Of a DNA stretch of 64,000 nt, positions 1 through 64,000 are shown one piece after another (within the stretch, counting starts at the first letter, position 1; the number at the start of each line of letters is the position of its first letter). Below the pieces are notes generated by a model. The model was not told the origin of the DNA. It saw nothing but the letters and a program-made list of their open reading frames with translations, and made no database searches. The DNA lies in NCBI GenBank assembly GCA_023129115.1, contig JAGMCR010000002.1, forward strand, positions 78,753 to 142,752, read 5' to 3'. Made by a program: the position numbers and the translations under genes. This stretch comes from Candidatus Iainarchaeum sp. Lineage in GTDB: Archaea; B1Sed10-29; WALL01.

Positions 1-777
1 CCCGAGGAATTGCTGACCGAGGAAGACGTGCGTGCTTTAGTTGAAGCGTGTACGAACCCGCGCGACAAAGCTTTTGTCCTCACGTTGTACGAGAGTGGCT
101 GCCGAATAAGCGAGCTGCTGACGTTGCAGGTAAAGAGCGTGAGGTTTGACGAGCACGGCTCAATCTTGCGAGTGACTGGGAAGACCGGTGACAGGCGCGT
201 GAGGGTGATTTCCGCGGCTCCGGCAATCGCGTTGTGGCTCGACAACCACCCCACAAGGAAAGGGCACTTGTTTTGCTCCTTGGATGGGACGGGCATCAAC
301 TACTCGACCGCTAACGTGCTGTTAAGGAGGCTTGCTAAGAAGGCAGGCATTACGAAGCGTGTTAATCCGCACGGTTTCCGCCACGCCCGGGCCACGTCGC
401 TCGCGAACAAGCTCACAGAAGCCCAAATGAAGGAGTTCTTTGGTTGGGCTCAAAGTAGCGAGATGGCGGCTGTGTACGTCCACTTGTTGGGGCGGGACGT
501 GGACGATGCCCTGCTAAGCATTTACGGCGTGAAGCCACCCGAGGACGCTCGCAAGGAGCGTTTCGTGCCTAGGGCTTGTCCCAGGTGCAAGGAGACTAAT
601 TCTCCTGCTAGTAAATACTGTTGCAGGTGTGGCAGTGCGCTCGACCTCGCAACAGCGCTAGAGGCTGATGACAAGCACAAGGAAGCCGATGCATTGATGA
701 ACGAGCTCATCAAAGACGACAGGATAAAAGCGCTTCTATTGGAGCGGTTGGTTGCCATCCAAGCAGAGAATCATTAA
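1..777 (+). CDS. Tyrosine recombinase/integrase with C-terminal zinc ribbon (5'-truncated by window edge)
   Basis: Catalytic motifs SGCRISEL (R), GKTG (K), HGFRH (HxxR), FGW, VYVH (Y); C-terminal CPRC..CCRCG ribbon; frame open from base 1. Confidence 0.93.
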   Translation, partial: PEELLTEEDVRALVEACTNPRDKAFVLTLYESGCRISELLTLQVKSVRFDEHGSILRVTGKTGDRRVRVISAAPAIALWLDNHPTRKGHLFCSLDGTGINYSTANVLLRRLAKKAGITKRVNPHGFRHARATSLANKLTEAQMKEFFGWAQSSEMAAVYVHLLGRDVDDALLSIYGVKPPEDARKERFVPRACPRCKETNSPASKYCCRCGSALDLATALEADDKHKEADALMNELIKDDRIKALLLERLVAIQAENH

Positions 778-5742: not shown

Positions 5743-6079
5743 CAGCGTCCTGGGGGGCGCAGCCCCCCACGAAGCCCATGACGTTGACACAAGTCAACGT
5801 CCAGTCCACGGGAAGAGTCCCCTCAGTAATACTGTACTAGCTGCTGCCGGGCGGCCTTGCGCCGCCCTCGTCTAACGTGCCGCCTGAGTTTCAGGCGCTC
5901 CCGAGGCTCAGCGTCCTGGGGGGCGCAGCCCCCCACTACCCCGGGAAGCGCCCCCCCAGGTGAGTGGGTAAGAGCTCGCTTCCGCTCGCGGTTTTTGTCT
6001 CTGGGAATCGCAGATTCCCAAGCCTAACGTGCTGTACCGTGAATCCCAACGGATTTGCGGTTGTCCTGAGTTTCAGGCG
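5743..6079 (+). repeat. Two tandem non-coding mini-elements (about 155 and 170 bp) between core copies
   Basis: Each begins CAGCGTCCTGGGGGGCGCAGCCCCCCAC and ends ...CCTGAGTTTCAGGCG, followed by CTCCCGAGGCT. Confidence 0.85.
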
Positions 6080-22620: not shown

Positions 22621-22863
22621 TAACTCGGGGGTTATCCTCTAATCCACCTACCCGTCTGAGCTTTATTCCGCACCAGTCTATAAATAGTCCTTTGAGCAGA
22701 GCCTCGGGGGCATGAGGACCGACCCTTACAATACCGGTACGAAGCTAGTGAATTGCCTTGAGCGGGTTAGGGGGTGTAGAGCCAACTTTATTAATAGAGG
22801 CGTGCATAAAGCCAGTAGAGGGCAATTTATTTATATAGCCGGTTCATTTGTATGGCTTAGAGG

Positions 22864-35070: not shown

Positions 35071-35736
35071 TTGGCAGATAAAGCAGCAGTATTCATAGAT
35101 TAAGGCTACTTAACGAGGGTGCTTGGCCACTTTGGGTTACAATCTTTTGCTAGGGAGCCCAAAACCAATCGCTTTGTTTTCGAGAATAAAGTTGATTACG
35201 CGAAACTGTGTGACAAAATGTGCGGCTTGGAAGGGGCTAAGCGTTTTAGGACTTACGTTTACGATGCTGACCCTTACCAGAACAATCCCCCGACGCAGGA
35301 TGACCGGGATCAATTGAGCGAGAAGCAAAGGTTTTTCAATTGGCTGGAGGGCTTGCCGAGTTTTACTGTGCGCAAGGGCAAGTGCTTGAAGCGAGAGTTC
35401 AAGCAATGCCATGGTTATAAGGTCGGGCATTTTTTGACTCCTTGCTGGCACATAACACAGAAGGGCGTGGACGTGAAGTTCTCGGTTGACCTGGTTTCTT
35501 TGGCTTGGGACAAGAGGATAGACAAGGCCATTTTGGTTACGGGGGACAGTGACTTTATTCCGGCAATTGAGAACGCAAAGGACGCCAACATGAAGGCAAT
35601 CATTTACTTTTTGCGGCGTGGCTCCACAGGCATAAACCAAGGCCTGTACTACTTGGTTGATGAGCGGCATGAATTTACCCGTGATTTCTTCAGCGATTGC
35701 TTAATTGGCCAAAGCACTTGGAAAAAGAATAAATAG
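35071..35736 (+). pseudogene. NYN-domain protein with in-frame TAA at codon 11
   Basis: TTG 35071 gives MADKAAVFID*GYL; downstream YVYD, QKGVDV, LVTGDSDFIP motifs are intact. Confidence 0.7.
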
Positions 35737-35764
35737 TAAAGAATACAAACTCTTTCTCCACAGT

Positions 35765-35882
35765 GCAGGGGTACCAAAGCGGCCAAATGGGATGGACTCA
35801 AGCGGTAGATGGAAAATCCGCCCGTCTCTCGGAGATATCCATTGGCTTAGTGCCTTCGAGAGTTCGAATCTCTCCCCCTGCA
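35765..35882 (+). tRNA. tRNA-Leu(CAA) with 34-nt intron at 37/38 (35803-35836)
   Basis: Acceptor GCAGGGG/CCCCTGC-A; anticodon stem ATGGA/TCCAT, loop CT-CAA-G|A; long variable arm; T arm GAGAG-TTCGAAT-CTCTC. Confidence 0.93.
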
Positions 35883-35884
35883 CT

Positions 35885-36049
35885 CAGCCCCTTGGGGGGC
35901 GCAGCCCCCCACTGAGCTGGCGTGCATCCCCCCAGGTGAGTGGGTAAGGGCTCGCTTGCGCTCGCGGTTTTTGTCTCTGGGAATCGCTAGATTCCCAAGC
36001 CTAACGTGCCGCCTTAGTTTAAGGCGTTATAATCCCTTCCCCTGCACTC
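35885..36049 (+). repeat. Mini-element followed by a duplicate tRNA-Leu 3' end
   Basis: Nearly identical in part to 5918-6032; 36031-36049 matches tRNA end 35867-35885 at 17/19. Confidence 0.85.
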
Positions 36050-36120
36050 TACTCTTGAGGGTGAAATCCCACGGCTTTAACCGAAAGTATTATATATCAT
36101 ATGATTATATGATATACCAT

Positions 36121-36666
36121 ATGTTGAAGCAGTGGGAAAAGTTCAGGGGATGGAAAATCCTGGAATACTTTTTGGAGAGCCCGACATCGCAGATATACAT
36201 AAACAAGTTGTCCCGACAGCTTGGGGTAAGCCCCCAAACAGCAAACACCTACCTCGAGATGTACGCAAATGATGGAATACTAAAGAAGAAAAAGGCCGCA
36301 AATGCCTCGTTCTATTCGCTAGATAATTCCCTACCCCGTGTCAAGAAGCTGAAACAATTTTACTCCCTTGCCCTACTAAACGAAGTCAAGTTCGTTGAGA
36401 AAACATTGAAAGAAAACCCTGAAACAAAGTCAATAATTCTTTACGGCAGCCACGTTACTGGGGAATACGATGAAAAAAGCGATTTGGATATTCTTATTAT
36501 TTCTCCCAACAAGAAGAAGCCGATGAAGGCAATCAGGTCGCTGAAAAAGGATGTGACACTAGGCGTTTATTCACTTGCCGAATGGCGAAAGGCCAGCAAG
36601 GAATTCAAGGAATCGGTCGCGAAAAATCATGTTGTGCTTTACGGCACGGGACTAGTGATGAAATGA
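36121..36666 (+). CDS. wHTH + minimal nucleotidyltransferase (MNT) antitoxin
   Basis: ILYGSHVTGEYDEKSDLDILII; N-terminal HTH. Confidence 0.9.
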   Translation: MLKQWEKFRGWKILEYFLESPTSQIYINKLSRQLGVSPQTANTYLEMYANDGILKKKKAANASFYSLDNSLPRVKKLKQFYSLALLNEVKFVEKTLKENPETKSIILYGSHVTGEYDEKSDLDILIISPNKKKPMKAIRSLKKDVTLGVYSLAEWRKASKEFKESVAKNHVVLYGTGLVMK

Positions 36667-37085
36667 AAACAGCGGCAGAATGCTTTGAAGAAGGAAAGCT
36701 AAAGAAAACCAAGAAAGAAGCAGAACAAGTAGAAAATTCAGTAGGGCAAGCAGAGCACTACCTCGGTCGCGCTGTAGGGGTCCTCAAATCAGAATTCCCC
36801 GACGTATCTTTCTTAATGTCGTACAACGCCATGTTCCACGCCGCAAGAGCGTTGCTTTTCAGGGACGGGGTAAAAGAAAGAAGCCACTACTGCATGGTAC
36901 AGTACCTTCGCGAAAAGTACCCTGGACAAGAAATCAGCCAATCCATCGAAATACTTGACAATTACCGTCTTGACCGCCACAAAGTCCAGTACAGCGGAGG
37001 CAATTGCACTCACGAAGAAGCAGAGCAAGCAATAAAAGACGCTAAAGAATTTATCACACTCGTCAAAAAAGCAGTCCAAAAATAG
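36663..37085 (+). CDS. HEPN-domain protein
   Basis: YNAMFHAARALL, ERSH, RHKVQY; ATGA overlap with MNT. Confidence 0.9.
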   Translation: MKTAAECFEEGKLKKTKKEAEQVENSVGQAEHYLGRAVGVLKSEFPDVSFLMSYNAMFHAARALLFRDGVKERSHYCMVQYLREKYPGQEISQSIEILDNYRLDRHKVQYSGGNCTHEEAEQAIKDAKEFITLVKKAVQK

Positions 37086-37112
37086 CGCTATCCCCACCAG
37101 TTTTAGATAACG

Positions 37113-37213
37113 CTTCCCCCGCACCACAGCCCCTTGGGGGGCACAGCCCCCCACTGAGCTGGCGTGCATCCCCCAGGTGAGTGGGTAAGGGCTCGCTTGC
37201 GCTCGCGGTTTTG
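37113..37213 (+). repeat. Degenerate tRNA-Leu 3' end (+CCA) and truncated mini-element
   Basis: CTTCCCCCGCACCA then about 87 bp nearly identical to 35885-35973. Confidence 0.85.
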
Positions 37214-37231
37214 TTTTAGTCCGCCTGCCCC

Positions 37232-39757
37232 CTACTTTTTCCTGGTCCAGTAAAACAGCGCCGCCGCGCCAATGACGACTACCACTCCCAGCAGCCACAG
37301 CGGCAGCCCCGCCCCCTCTGCCGGTGGCACGATTGCCGCTGCCTCGGGCTTCAGTGTCGGTTCCGGAGTCGGCTCCACCGTTGGCTCTGGCGTTGAAACC
37401 GGCGCCGGCGGCGTTGCCAGAGGCACTTCCGCGTAGCCTTGTGTGAACAAGACCGGCGCGGTCACTTCACTCCTGACATTGTTCCGGTTCACGTAACTCT
37501 CCGTCGTGAAGCGAACAACTTTCTCCGTGCCCGCAGCGAACTCGCCAAACACAATTGTGAACACGGGGTCCGAGTTTGTGACTACAACCGTGGCCCCGCC
37601 CGCGTCAACCGAAATGCTCGAAGCGCTCGAGGCGAACGACTTGGGTATGTCGATTACAACAATCTCGCCCTCCAGGCCCTCCTCGCCGGTGTAATCAATC
37701 ACCAGGGTGAGCTCGGACTCACTCCCACTCACGTGGTCAACCTCTATCGTGGCAGTAAAGTGCTGTGACACTTGCCCAGACAACGCTGCAATCCCCTCGA
37801 AATCCTCCCTACTCACGCCCGCGTCCTCCAGAGCGCTCTGGACATTTTCATCGGTCTGCATCAATTCAAGCAACTCTTCCGCCGTCGCGTCAAACGAGAA
37901 CTCGGTCTCGTAGCCGTACGACGGTGCAGGCCCTGCCGATGGGGTGTCAGAAGACCCGCGTGTGGGAGTGCTCTTCGAGGGCGCCGGGGCAGGCGCCGCC
38001 GGTGGGGGAGACCCAAACACGCCGTAGCCAGAGAAGTGCGTCGAGTTCGCCCACACGTAGTTCGCAGTGGTGTTCACCCCGCCGTTCGGTGGGTCGAACG
38101 TCTCCCACGTGTCCGAAGTCGCGTTGTAGTACTCAATCGCCAGCGAGCTCTCCTGCAGGCCGGCGGCAGTGACTTCCGCGTCCGTGTAGTAAATCTTGAT
38201 TATCACCCAAGACATGTTCCCGGCCTCGCCAGTCGTGTTGAACTCAACCCATGTCCCCAGCTTCGTCAGTGAATACCCCGAGACACCGCTCGGCACGTCG
38301 TCGTACGTCTTGATGGTCAAGGTCGCGTTATAGCCATTGGTGGAATGCACTTCCGTCGAGAAGCTCGTGGTGTTCACTGTCTGGTTGCCGCCAGCCGGGA
38401 TGCCCAGGGTATCCTGCAGGTAGCCCGTCTCGTCGCCCGTAAAGTTGACTTCTTCCCCACCAATCGTCACGGTGCAGCTCGTCGCAGTCATGCTCCCGCC
38501 GAGCGTCGATACCCAGCCGTCCCCAATCGCAATGTTGTTGTTCCTGCAGACAATGTCGTCGGTTATCCTCCAGTACACGCTCTTTTCCATGCCGCCCTCG
38601 TACAAGCCGTACTTCCCGTTGTTCTCGAAGTTGCCGTTGTACATGTCAACAGTGCTGGAAATCAGGTAAAGGCCAGTTACCGCCCTCCCCTGGTTGTCCG
38701 TGAAGTCACTGTCCCGCAGGATGAGGCTCGTGCTCACGATGCGCATTCCCTCCCCGTTGCCGTAGAACCCGCTGTCCTTCACCTCGGCCTCTCCCGAGTT
38801 GCCGACAGTGTCCATGTACACGCCGTAAATGGTGTTGTTCCTGAAGTCGTTGTTGTTTATCAGCAAGTCATCCGTGTCAACCAGGTAGAGCCCAATCTCG
38901 TTCCAGTTGACGTCGTTCCCCCTGAAGACGGCATCTTCAATGTCATTTCCGTACACGCCATAATCTGTGTTGCCGCTGATGTTGTTGTTCCTTATCGTGG
39001 CGTTGTAGCACCCCCTCCTGCTTGTAGTCATGTATATGCCATAGCCCGAGCCGTCAGTGATGTTGTTGTTTTTTATTGTCACGTGGTCAGACTCAATCAT
39101 GTAAACCAGGTATTGGCTGCCGCCGTTGTTGTCAATGTGGTTCCCGTCCAGCAGGGTGCTGTCGCTGCCGTCCTGCATATTGACGGCGCAGCGTGTGTTG
39201 TCGTGGAGGTACACCCCGGTTATGGTGTTGCCCGTGGAGTTGCCCTCCAGCAAAACGCCTGCATGGCCCAAACCATTAATCCGGTTGTTGTACATGATTT
39301 TCCCGCCGCCCACTGTGTTGCCACTAGAGTTTGTCATCCTAATGCCTGATTGAGTGTTGTTCGTGATGTTGTTGTCTTCCATAGTGTTGTCGTCCACATT
39401 GGACAACTGGATACCGGTCGCATATTCTGATATACAGCAATTCTTTACTGTGACGTTGTCCGCCATCACCGTGATGCCGGTGTTCGCGTCTCCGCCCACG
39501 ATTCCATAGCCGTCACAGTCAAGCACGACGTTCGCTGCGGAAACAATGAGCCCGTTGTCGCAGTTGGTCAGGTTGTCAGACGCGTTGAAGACCCTGCTTT
39601 CATTAAGGTCGATGGCCCCTGCCCCGCAGTCGCAGGGAATGTCCCCGCCGCAGTTCGTGGGGACCCACGCGCTCGCGCTGGCCACAAGCAACAGCAAAAA
39701 AACCACGGCCCCCCCAATTGTATTGCAATAACCATTATACTTCATAGTGTTCACCAA
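37232..39757 (-). CDS. Cell-surface glycoprotein with parallel beta-helix (NosD/CASH-like) repeats and C-terminal TM anchor
   Basis: Signal peptide; repeated N.I..N...GI; HFSGYGV motif; PTPEPT linker; TM followed by RKK. Confidence 0.85.
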   Translation of the reverse strand: MVNTMKYNGYCNTIGGAVVFLLLLVASASAWVPTNCGGDIPCDCGAGAIDLNESRVFNASDNLTNCDNGLIVSAANVVLDCDGYGIVGGDANTGITVMADNVTVKNCCISEYATGIQLSNVDDNTMEDNNITNNTQSGIRMTNSSGNTVGGGKIMYNNRINGLGHAGVLLEGNSTGNTITGVYLHDNTRCAVNMQDGSDSTLLDGNHIDNNGGSQYLVYMIESDHVTIKNNNITDGSGYGIYMTTSRRGCYNATIRNNNISGNTDYGVYGNDIEDAVFRGNDVNWNEIGLYLVDTDDLLINNNDFRNNTIYGVYMDTVGNSGEAEVKDSGFYGNGEGMRIVSTSLILRDSDFTDNQGRAVTGLYLISSTVDMYNGNFENNGKYGLYEGGMEKSVYWRITDDIVCRNNNIAIGDGWVSTLGGSMTATSCTVTIGGEEVNFTGDETGYLQDTLGIPAGGNQTVNTTSFSTEVHSTNGYNATLTIKTYDDVPSGVSGYSLTKLGTWVEFNTTGEAGNMSWVIIKIYYTDAEVTAAGLQESSLAIEYYNATSDTWETFDPPNGGVNTTANYVWANSTHFSGYGVFGSPPPAAPAPAPSKSTPTRGSSDTPSAGPAPSYGYETEFSFDATAEELLELMQTDENVQSALEDAGVSREDFEGIAALSGQVSQHFTATIEVDHVSGSESELTLVIDYTGEEGLEGEIVVIDIPKSFASSASSISVDAGGATVVVTNSDPVFTIVFGEFAAGTEKVVRFTTESYVNRNNVRSEVTAPVLFTQGYAEVPLATPPAPVSTPEPTVEPTPEPTLKPEAAAIVPPAEGAGLPLWLLGVVVVIGAAALFYWTRKK

Positions 39758-56208: not shown

Positions 56209-58139
56209 ATCCCGGGCGGGCCGTAGTTCTCCGCGGGCTTCTCTTCTTCGGTGGGCTCTGAATAGGTTTCGTCGTAGTCAGAGACTTTTCTCACGCGCTC
56301 CGTGGTTACAGTGCGGACCGGCACGGGCTTCGCGTGCTCGTACCCCTTGACGCCTGCCTCGCCCGCACACTCCTCGTACTTCCTGTCGTAGCACTCGTCA
56401 ATCTTGGGCTGGCACTCTTGCATTGCCTCTTCGTAGCACCGGTTGACCTCGTCCCAGCAGCTCTTGTCAATGTTCCGCTCGCACTCCCGCTGCTTGTGCT
56501 CTAAGTCGTCCTGGATTTCGCGCTCGCACTCGCGGCGCTTTTGGGTCCACTCGTCCTCGATTTTTTCCTGGCAGTCCCTGCCCGACGACTCAATTTCCTC
56601 GTTTATCTTGCGCTCGCACTCCCTCCACTTGTCCTGTGCCTCTTCGTCCCACCGCTTCGAGCACGCCCGCGCGTCGTCGTTGCAGTCCTCGACCTTGCGG
56701 TCAAAGCCCTTGTTCAGCTCGTCGCACTCCGAGTTCCCCTTTGCATTGTAGTCGTCCCACACCTCATTGCAGTCCGAATTGGCTTGCGAGTCATACTCGT
56801 TCCAGATGTCAGAGCAGTCATAGTCCGTGTAGTAAGTCTCGTTCGTTGTCTCGTTCACGTGCACTGACTTCTCCGCGAGCTCGTCGCACTCGGCTTCGGC
56901 TTTGGCGTTGTACTCTTCCCGGATGTCGTTGCACTCCGCTTCAGCCTTTGAGTTGTACTCCTCCCAGATGTCCGAGCAGTCCACGTCGTACTTGATGTCC
57001 TCGCACTCTTCCCAGCACCCGCGCTGCTTGGCGTCGTAGTACTCATTGTCGTAGCAGTCGTCCATGCGGTCTTCCCAGTCCTCTGGCCAGCAGTCGCGCA
57101 TCAAGTCCTCGTAGTAATAGTCGTCGACGCACTCCCTCATGCGGTCGTCCCACTCGTACGGGTCGTAGCACTCATGCATCTGGTCCTCGCACTCCCAGCT
57201 GAGCTCTTTGCACTTGTCGTCGACGAGGTCCTGGCACTCCCAGTTCATTTCCTCGCACTCCCAGTGCGCGCTGTCCATGCACTCCCGGATCTCCATGCCC
57301 TCGTGCTCCGGGTTGGGCGGGGCGCCCATCTCGCCGAACGGGCCCGCACTCTTCGTTAGGTCCATGTCCGCGACAACGATGACGTACGCGCCATCGACCG
57401 TGACGGACTTTATTTCGACGCCTTCCCCGCCGAGCTCTTCCTTGGCCTTTCCCTTCATCGCCTGCGCGGCCGCGGCGTCCGCGAACTTGCCGATGAACGT
57501 GGTGTGCGCGATGTTGCCCTCGACTGTGGCAGAGATGCCCATTTTTTCCGGGCTGTCCTCCCCCTCATCCATCTTCTGGCTCGCCATCAGGAAGTCGCCG
57601 TCCGGCAGCCTCGACAAAATGCCTTCGAAGTCATTCACCGCATTGGCCCCGCCGTTCTTAACGTCAATTATTTTCTTCAGGTTGCTTGGCTCGGCGAGGT
57701 ATACTCTGTTGTCCTTCGTGAAGTATGACGGCCCGCCCGTGGACTTGATTACGTACCCGCCGTACGTCTCTTCCACAGACTTTTCTCCGCCCGCCTGCGA
57801 AATCCTTTGCGTAACAATCGGGATTATGCCGCTCAAGTCAAAAGCGCCCTCGACAATCATTGTCTCCGGCCCGTCCCTCATGTCACTGATGGCAATGGCC
57901 CGCAGCGACTTGACCGCCAGGCCGAACGCCGCCATCTCGGCCGGGACGCCCATCTTGTCAATCACGACGGGGTTGGCACTCAATTTGTTGACGTCGGCAA
58001 ACATTATGAACGCCGACCCGCTCGGCGCCTCGTTCGCGACCCAGTAAAGCCTGTTCTGGTAACTCCCCTCGCTGGACGTGAACGGCGTCACGCACCCGGC
58101 GAGCAGCACTGCAATAATTAGAATGGCAAGCCTCTTCAT
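56205..58139 (-). CDS. Lipoprotein with long acidic Cys-periodic C-terminal region
   Basis: Lipobox LAGC after ATG 58139; globular N-terminal half; 28 regularly spaced Cys. Confidence 0.85.
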   Translation of the reverse strand: MKRLAILIIAVLLAGCVTPFTSSEGSYQNRLYWVANEAPSGSAFIMFADVNKLSANPVVIDKMGVPAEMAAFGLAVKSLRAIAISDMRDGPETMIVEGAFDLSGIIPIVTQRISQAGGEKSVEETYGGYVIKSTGGPSYFTKDNRVYLAEPSNLKKIIDVKNGGANAVNDFEGILSRLPDGDFLMASQKMDEGEDSPEKMGISATVEGNIAHTTFIGKFADAAAAQAMKGKAKEELGGEGVEIKSVTVDGAYVIVVADMDLTKSAGPFGEMGAPPNPEHEGMEIRECMDSAHWECEEMNWECQDLVDDKCKELSWECEDQMHECYDPYEWDDRMRECVDDYYYEDLMRDCWPEDWEDRMDDCYDNEYYDAKQRGCWEECEDIKYDVDCSDIWEEYNSKAEAECNDIREEYNAKAEAECDELAEKSVHVNETTNETYYTDYDCSDIWNEYDSQANSDCNEVWDDYNAKGNSECDELNKGFDRKVEDCNDDARACSKRWDEEAQDKWRECERKINEEIESSGRDCQEKIEDEWTQKRRECEREIQDDLEHKQRECERNIDKSCWDEVNRCYEEAMQECQPKIDECYDRKYEECAGEAGVKGYEHAKPVPVRTVTTERVRKVSDYDETYSEPTEEEKPAENYGPPGI

Positions 58140-63891: not shown

Positions 63892-64000
63892 ATGGCAGCA
63901 AGGAAAACAACTCGGAGGAAAACCGCAACGCGCAAGAAGACAACCAAGCGCAAGACAACCAGGAAGACAACCACGAAGCGCAAGACAACCAAGCGCAAGA
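63892..64000 (+). CDS. Histone H1-like Lys/Arg/Thr-rich protein (3'-truncated)
   Basis: GGAGGT SD; MAARKTTRRKTATRKKTTKRKTTRKTTTKRKTTKRK. Confidence 0.65.
   Translation, partial: MAARKTTRRKTATRKKTTKRKTTRKTTTKRKTTKRK

Follow-up and report, generated by a model that had tools for sequence, protein, structure and literature searches.

We examined a 64,000-nt stretch of a Candidatus Iainarchaeum sp. genome (assembly GCA_023129115.1, contig JAGMCR010000002.1; hereafter the window) in which a tRNA-Leu(CAA) gene is followed by hairpin-forming mini-elements, a cassette for a minimal nucleotidyltransferase (MNT) and a HEPN-domain protein, and displaced copies of the tRNA 3' end. In the labels used here, G000 is the source assembly, C-numbers are its contigs, the window is G000:C12:78753-142752, and G001 and G002 are congeners. 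The source assembly comprises 1.25 Mb in 19 contigs and is 88.6% complete; all genomes compared are incomplete (84-89%). The following features lie at the locus:

35765..35882, + strand: tRNA-Leu(CAA) gene (Rfam RF00005, 42.4 bits, E 3e-7, full model, local scan)
about 35803-35836, + strand: 34-nt intron after the anticodon (ARAGORN calls Leu(CAA) after the 34 nt are removed in silico)
35867..35885, + strand: left copy of the probable duplicated target, from the T-loop to 3 nt beyond the discriminator base
35886..36030, + strand: complete mini-element of 145 nt, directly after the tRNA, with homologous copies in G000 and G002
35894-35910, + strand: G/C hairpin of the mini-element
35929-35971, + strand: conserved 43-nt block of the mini-element
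35978-35997, + strand: hairpin 1 of the mini-element
35998-36009, + strand: single-stranded core of the mini-element
36010-36026, + strand: hairpin 2 of the mini-element
36027-36030, + strand: TTAT, the end of the mini-element
36031..36049, + strand: right (displaced) copy of the tRNA-Leu tail, 17/19 against the current tRNA
36109..36666, + strand: helix-turn-helix (HTH) plus MNT protein, MntA-like putative antitoxin (PF18765 1.8e-10, PF01909 3.8e-10, PF13412)
36663..37085, + strand: HEPN-domain protein, putative toxin (PF05168 4.6e-18)
37110..37126, + strand: second Leu-type tail copy, ending in CCA (37124-37126), 12/14 against 36035-36048, read by eye
37113-37126, + strand: CTTCCCCCGCACCA motif
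37127..37231, + strand: truncated second mini-element, with G/C hairpin and conserved block at 37127-37212
37213-37231, + strand: stub of another hairpin-1 type, abutting the stop of a convergent 841-aa gene

Because it contains a 34-nt intron, the tRNA-Leu(CAA) gene was missed by ARAGORN, run with or without introns, and by the filtered whole-window Rfam scan at the gathering threshold. No Rfam family besides tRNA is significant in 35650-37300. All of the features that a sequence-only reading had listed in order behind the tRNA are present, within a few bases of where it placed them, as is the 17/19 copy of the tRNA 3' end: 36031-36049 is the sole other match in the window to the tail at 35867-35885 (at most 3 mismatches), and none of 100 shuffles matched. 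Alignment of the complete mini-element with 5907-6011 gives 87% identity over 105 nt, and with 5952-6032 it gives 96.3% over 82 nt; the last 59 nt of the element (35972-36030) fold with a z of -5.13 (0/200 shuffles equally stable). The truncated element lacks both terminal hairpins; its segment 37127-37212 is 97.7% identical to 35885-35971 over 87 nt, and the convergent gene that ends it encodes a beta-helix protein. The CCA at 37124-37126 raised the possibility of a retro-copy of a mature tRNA, which we rejected because in relatives (G002, G003 and G005) the CCA of tRNA-Leu is genomically encoded. Three public DNA runs of one study (cold-seep metagenomes) contain the stretch, as short contigs that break at the repeats; the contigs of those three runs hold no joints, and hence nothing on filled/empty polymorphism, and no RNA run was listed with the stretch. 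The flanking genes of the tRNA-Leu(CAA) locus differ in G001, G002 and G004, so the empty state of this particular site is not reconstructable.

The mini-elements belong to a family that is non-autonomous, hairpin-rich and restricted to the genus. In the minimal form (~60 nt), a conserved single-stranded core lies between hairpins 1 and 2; the long form (~145 nt) has a G/C hairpin and a conserved block in addition. A hidden Markov model of the core plus hairpin 2, for which 18 copies served as seed, gave 49 hits on the source assembly, 48 of which were kept; more copies of this small, non-coding element occur in G001 and G002. The hairpins are kept in structure, not in sequence: hairpin 2 has compensatory variants with a perfect stem of at least 5 bp in 38/42 copies, and hairpin 1 occurs in 39 distinct versions among 42 copies. 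We consider the element genus-restricted because only two other genome records among 185,579 species contain its exact core-plus-hairpin-2 motif, and because DNA matches (E <= 1e-5) among 41 genomes are limited to G000-G002. Inspection of the element ends by eye revealed no clear terminal inverted repeats (no formal test was made), and a limited literature search found no published description of the element. Some elements carry, between core and hairpin 2, an insertion of a second small hairpin repeat, ~30 nt long (motif CCTGGCGAATCC...GGATTGCCGGGGCA), often several in tandem (G000:C4:25380, C2:19728 and C17:10160; G001 1640-1720, locus L011).

Half of the family lies behind tRNA genes. Given the 44 tRNAs identified by Rfam in the source assembly, 24 of the 48 elements start 0-450 nt downstream of the end of a same-strand tRNA (random expectation 0.8%), and these occupy 20 of the 44 tRNAs. 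Orientation downstream of tRNAs is nearly uniform (24 same, 1 opposite). The sequence-only reading had noted one module family beside two different tRNA-end cores in the window, and had made enrichment behind tRNAs throughout the genome a check of its view; the enrichment is indeed present, and the number of tRNAs concerned is 20. Its check also required the core downstream of a module to track the adjacent tRNA. The downstream copy usually does so, and neither of the outcomes that the reading had named as refuting it was seen. A copy of the tail of its own tRNA follows 11 of the 20 scorable elements (of the 24; hairpin 2 adjacent; score >=10), and the same score is reached in 26 of 860 mismatched element/tRNA pairs, several of which, on inspection, involve tRNAs with near-identical tails. 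The tracking does not always hold: Leu-type tails were found behind a tRNA-Arg(TCT) gene, described below.

Repeats around the elements were scored by comparing the 32 nt after hairpin 2 with the 300 nt upstream in 42 of the 49 hits (E <= 0.02), with shifted flanks as controls. A flanking repeat exceeds the 95th percentile of the controls (score 8) in 25 of the 42 elements and the control maximum (9) in 24. The left copy ends -1 to +6 nt from a tRNA end in 12 of the 25 repeats; three more are inside tRNA-linked arrays, and ten have no tRNA near. The duplications range in length from 10 to ~75 nt, and most are 12-21 nt. The non-tRNA repeats consist of local sequence, such as a 21-nt stop/start junction at C19:~13,100 and ~75 nt of the C-terminal coding region of a gene at C19:~64,350. 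In all, one element family adjoins at least 11 different tRNA tails and ten non-tRNA repeats.

We identified four sites that are empty in sister genomes, with the repeat in single copy, two of them at tRNAs and two between protein genes. At tRNA-Glu (C18:14036), a 21-nt sequence occurs once in G002 and twice around a 120-nt insert in the source assembly, and the site at tRNA-Arg(GCG) (C2:5085) is empty in G002. The C19:~13,100 site is empty in both G001 and G002 and has its 21-nt duplication in the source assembly; the C19:~64,350 site is empty in G002, with a duplication of ~75 nt in the source assembly. G002 has insertions of its own, including a long form behind tRNA-Arg(TCG), where the 18-nt duplicate is perfect, and further copies with 13-14-nt repeats at sites other than tRNA 3' ends.

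Given the ten non-tRNA duplications and the four single-copy empty sites, the duplication copies whatever lies at the target. We conclude, with a probability of roughly 80%, that the apparent cores at the locus are target duplications left by successive insertions behind tRNA-Leu(CAA), and not att cores. The earlier suggestion of a recombinase that reads tRNA 3' ends survives in one respect: some recognition of tRNA-gene ends may be involved, because insertion is strongly oriented and enriched at tRNAs. The other half of that suggestion, the tail as a recombination core, does not fit the duplications away from tRNAs or the empty sites.

Several observations weigh against target duplication. 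There is no clear flanking repeat for 17 of the 42 scored elements, and the variability in duplication length is unusual for a single transposase. The two element copies at the Leu locus are 97.7% identical, yet the tail copies that flank them differ more. The displaced Leu copy (36031-36049) is identical at 19/19 positions to the tRNA-Leu(CAA) tail of G004, which belongs to another genus of the same family, and nearly identical to that of G002; it is closer to the tRNA-Leu(CAA) of these relatives than the current gene is, as integrase-type end replacement predicts. Leu-type tails and a homologous cassette frame are present behind tRNA-Arg(TCT) on contig C5. Finally, no enzyme was identified: Cas1 (PF01867) and the Y1 transposase/RAYT were each found in 0/13 genomes, and neither G001 nor G002, both carriers of the element, has a TnpB above cut-off.

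When tails were compared across 14 tRNA cases, displaced copy and current tail proved exactly equal in 6. In the remaining cases it is mostly the current tail, not the displaced copy, that is closer to the G002 orthologue, as expected had both copies begun identical. Looking at the Leu gene itself, we found that the 3' 43 nt of tRNA-Leu(CAA) (window 35840-35885) are 100% identical to a tRNA-Leu(CAG) gene of G002 (G002:C14:2625-2710); the 3' half of the gene seems to have been replaced or converted after insertion. The displaced copy at tRNA-Arg(GCG) (G000:C2:5085) resembles the G002 gene, like the Leu case. In G004 (C17:9106-9500), two short inserts and a small gene cassette stand behind tRNA-Leu(CAA), and a perfect 17-nt tail copy, with CTTCG before it, bounds each of them; the element sequences there are unrelated to those described here.

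Gene cassettes show the same repeat-flanked architecture. At the Leu locus, the adjacent genes for a nucleotidyltransferase (PF18765/PF01909) and a HEPN protein (PF05168) span 36109-37085 and are bracketed by two Leu-type tails (12/14 matching, by eye). The MNT stop and the HEPN start overlap by 4 nt. MntA/HepT (type VII) toxin-antitoxin (TA) pairs have the same order, nucleotidyltransferase then HEPN, with overlapping stop and start. The MNT here differs from MntA in its N-terminal winged-helix domain and in scoring 38.1 bits on NF047752 (NCBIfam MntA), under the cut-off of 60; its TA role is predicted from domain content and gene order. A third MNT-HEPN pair (C9:65225-66207, in the region C9:65090-66325) has a ~75-nt direct repeat unrelated to tRNA on both sides.

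The second pair is at G000:C5:66950-69031 (minus strand), behind tRNA-Arg(TCT). The order there is element, Arg tail, element, Leu-type tail, HTH-MNT/HEPN pair and Leu-type tail, and it continues with a HicB/HicA-like pair (identified by reading translations) and a Leu-type tail with CCA and the G/C hairpin. Compared with the Leu-locus pair, the MNT proteins are 23% and the HEPN proteins 32% identical; over 30-40 nt at the borders of the cassettes, identity is 84-89%. Because Leu-type tails sit behind tRNA-Arg(TCT), some cassettes would carry their flanks along or have been moved secondarily. The C5 frames were either moved, perhaps via recombination between elements, or travelled with their flanks.

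The data show that elements land in a single orientation directly past the 3' end of a gene, chiefly of a tRNA gene, with a target duplication of variable length: the gene on the left stays intact, and its last 12-20 nt (sometimes up to ~75) are repeated to the right of the insert. The upstream gene is kept whole in this way, and so is the downstream gene where genes overlap. As the mechanism, we propose that the two strands would be cut at staggered positions on either side of the stretch between T-loop and tRNA end, and that a trans-acting enzyme would join the element and fill in the gaps. At the Leu locus, the newest insert would be the one nearest the tRNA, the 145-nt element with its 19-nt duplicate, followed by the older MNT-HEPN cassette with a ~14-nt duplicate and by the oldest, the element that is now truncated. 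We favour a staggered-break enzyme because of the 24:1 orientation, the conserved element ends and the hairpins kept by compensatory change. We put this staggered-cut mechanism at a little under even odds, and target duplication together with staggered cutting at slightly better than even. A broader proposal, which we hold only tentatively, is that this DPANN-type genus has an orientation-specific insertion machinery that reads the 3' ends of genes, above all the segment from the tRNA T-arm to the gene end. It would follow a casposase-like logic (no Cas1 was found), and would insert elements and cassettes with a protective duplication of variable length, building, in a genome that has next to no spare DNA, tRNA-anchored arrays of TA and other accessory cassettes that are integron-like in effect although not integrons.

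Candidate enzymes were sought in the genomes. DDE_Tnp_1 was found only below the cut-off in the source assembly, with none above cut-off in G000-G002; other transposase families were not searched. Four TnpB-like (PF07282) frames are present in the source assembly (C13:134192, C3:10561, C3:79611 and C3:102282). None adjoins an element and none is above cut-off in the congeners, and we judge TnpB to be unrelated to the element.

The main rival to a staggered-break enzyme is copy-choice during replication or repair. In this scheme, which needs no dedicated enzyme, a polymerase would stall at a gene-end or T-arm hairpin, switch by microhomology to an ectopic hairpin element, copy that element, and go back into its first template upstream of the point of exit, duplicating a variable stretch. 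We think this improbable, but it has points in its favour: it would account for the variable and sometimes long duplications, for elements that are nested and mosaic (as at the tRNA-Gly locus), for the target repeats that also flank unrelated gene cassettes, and for the lack of a transposase in our searches (Cas1 and Y1 in 13 genomes; DDE_Tnp_1 above cut-off in the source assembly). The TTAT, TTAG and TTTG that precede the right copy resemble the T-loop TTCGA/TTCAA, which hints at microhomology at the junction. The very strong orientation bias (24:1) and the tRNA preference argue against copy-choice, and the conserved element ends and structurally kept hairpins 1 and 2 better fit a recognised substrate.

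Somewhat less probable again is a classical tRNA-targeting tyrosine integrase whose attP contains the segment from the T-loop to the 3' end. Successive integrations would then have built the array, and the mini-elements and the TA cassette would be deletion remnants or trans-mobilised derivatives, as in accretion of cis-mobilizable elements (CIMEs). The duplicates at tRNAs do start in the T-loop and stop at the 3' end, which is the pattern of T-loop-type att sites, and direct repeats of the tRNA 3' segment lie at both ends of inserts. Integrase-type exchange would also account for the more ancestral look of the displaced Leu and Arg(GCG) copies, which are nearer to the tRNAs of relatives than the current tails are, and Leu-type tails travel with the cassette frame to the tRNA-Arg locus. 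A recombinase is available on the same contig: the sole PF00589 protein of the source assembly (C12:78360-79529, 389 aa) is Xer-like, with a C-terminal zinc ribbon, and its last 258 codons open the window (1-777). Its best family is archaeal XerA-like (131 bits, below the cut-off of 220). It is present in 8/21 genomes and 85% identical in another genus, and this patchy distribution indicates that it belongs to a mobile element.

A fixed attP, however, cannot explain at least 11 tRNA tails and ten non-tRNA duplications in one element family, and duplication lengths range from 10 to ~75 nt; the family does not have one att block. The integrase was not found in G002 (84% complete), which has recent perfect duplications, and there is no integrase between 33.9 and 39.8 kb of the window, that is, at the tRNA-Leu locus. 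Across the 14 tRNAs compared, there is no general trend of the displaced copy toward the G002 orthologue. Integrase-type exchange is less likely for the mini-elements.

Such exchange may still operate in the left array of the window. Upstream of it, 3.8 kb before the window, is tRNA-Thr(CGT) (G000:C12:74872-74944), followed by the Xer-like integrase. Within window 4848-25347 the tRNA-Thr tail recurs in at least 13 co-oriented copies, which delimit segments of 0.2-4 kb; at 22712-22774, beside an inverted tail copy, lies a 21-aa piece of the N-terminus of the integrase with 95% identity.

Very unlikely is an integron-like platform, with the two-hairpin unit as a folded, attC-like site and the tRNA tail as an attI-like core that captures cassettes such as MNT-HEPN: an RYYYAAC-like heptamer is present in the inter-hairpin core of 19/42 copies, but its GTTRRRY partner occurs within 14 nt past hairpin 2 in 0/19, on which ground we rejected the attC reading, and against a cut-off of 265 on TIGR02249, the model for integron integrases, the sole tyrosine recombinase reaches 46.8 bits. 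To our knowledge, integron recombination makes no target duplication, and arbitrary local duplications are the rule here. Two features do recall integrons, namely the cassette frames conserved at 84-89% around divergent genes and the arrays of single-gene cassettes split by co-oriented two-hairpin units (C7 of the source assembly; C6 of G002). The C7 array (~67,300-72,100, minus strand) has five single-gene segments separated by a ~130-nt composite repeat that combines a TATA-like box with the two-hairpin unit and with a right flank of 37 nt that is conserved. Archaeal integrons involve IntI and attC, and TA genes are the commonest cargo reported for them (PMC9668308); the accessible text of that paper contains 0 mentions of tRNA.

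Elsewhere in the window, several families of 32-104-nt direct repeats (56384-57264) and a tandem repeat with a 15-nt period at the window end (63916-64000) probably code for repetitive proteins.

If target duplication is correct, close to half of the tRNA genes in this archaeon of 1.25 Mb are landing pads for one hairpin family, and the duplicated tRNA tails are insertion footprints and not recombination cores. In DPANN-type genomes of this sort, tail repeats linked to tRNAs could pass for att sites, and the displaced copies would serve as dated fossils of tRNA tails. Insertion of this kind would be one route by which a genome with overlapping genes gains DNA undamaged. It would point to an insertion activity with a casposase-like preference for tRNA ends, and the main interest lies in the combination of this extreme preference with a missing enzyme.

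REP and BIME palindromes (repetitive extragenic palindromes and bacterial interspersed mosaic elements) and MITEs (miniature transposable elements with inverted repeats) of bacteria and archaea are short, multi-copy, hairpin-forming, non-coding and intergenic, and may be mosaic or nested. The element described here shares all of these traits, with 48 copies in the source assembly. It differs in its long and variable duplications, its strong orientation and tRNA-end bias, and in that no RAYT/Y1 was found in the 13 genomes; in place of the terminal inverted repeats and short fixed duplication of a MITE, it has duplications of 10 to ~75 nt and ends in which, by eye, no clear inverted repeats are seen. 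Phage Ms6 and the Dehalococcoides ssrA islands reportedly have one integrase and one att sequence per element family, whereas a single family here carries many tails and non-tRNA repeats. What is shared with these systems is that repeats of the 3' part of a tRNA or tmRNA delimit the inserts, and that inserts stack behind one gene (Ms6, PMC1762012; ssrA islands, PMC3146451).

The casposon at the 3' end of tRNA-Pro in Aciduliprofundum boonei has a fixed 15-bp duplication with a 5-bp tRNA overlap, and a Cas1 casposase (Beguin et al., 2016, PMC5137440). It resembles the present case in its oriented insertion by a tRNA 3' end, with the T-loop region as part of the recognised target, and its target duplication by staggered attack and fill-in can be likened to the mechanism proposed here. 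Unlike the casposon, the duplicate here is the tRNA tail itself and varies in length, non-tRNA sites are used as well, and neither Cas1 (0/13 genomes) nor a uniform 14-15-bp duplication is found.

Insertion with long target duplication has been described for restriction-modification genes in bacteria (Furuta, Abe & Kobayashi, 2010, PMC2853133, which cites an earlier paper on the subject, Nobusato et al., 2000); repeats >30 bp were required, and in the part of the report available no archaeal case passed the screen. Those insertions share with ours the variable and often long local repeats that are single-copy in a related empty site, as found here at four loci; the repeats often overlap the 3' end of a gene and the insert lacks a mobility gene. 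By comparison, the commonest insert here is a hairpin element of 60-145 nt, its repeats mostly measure 12-21 nt, and its insertion is oriented and clusters at tRNA ends. Among described phenomena, insertion with long target duplication and the tRNA-end targeting of casposons come nearest.

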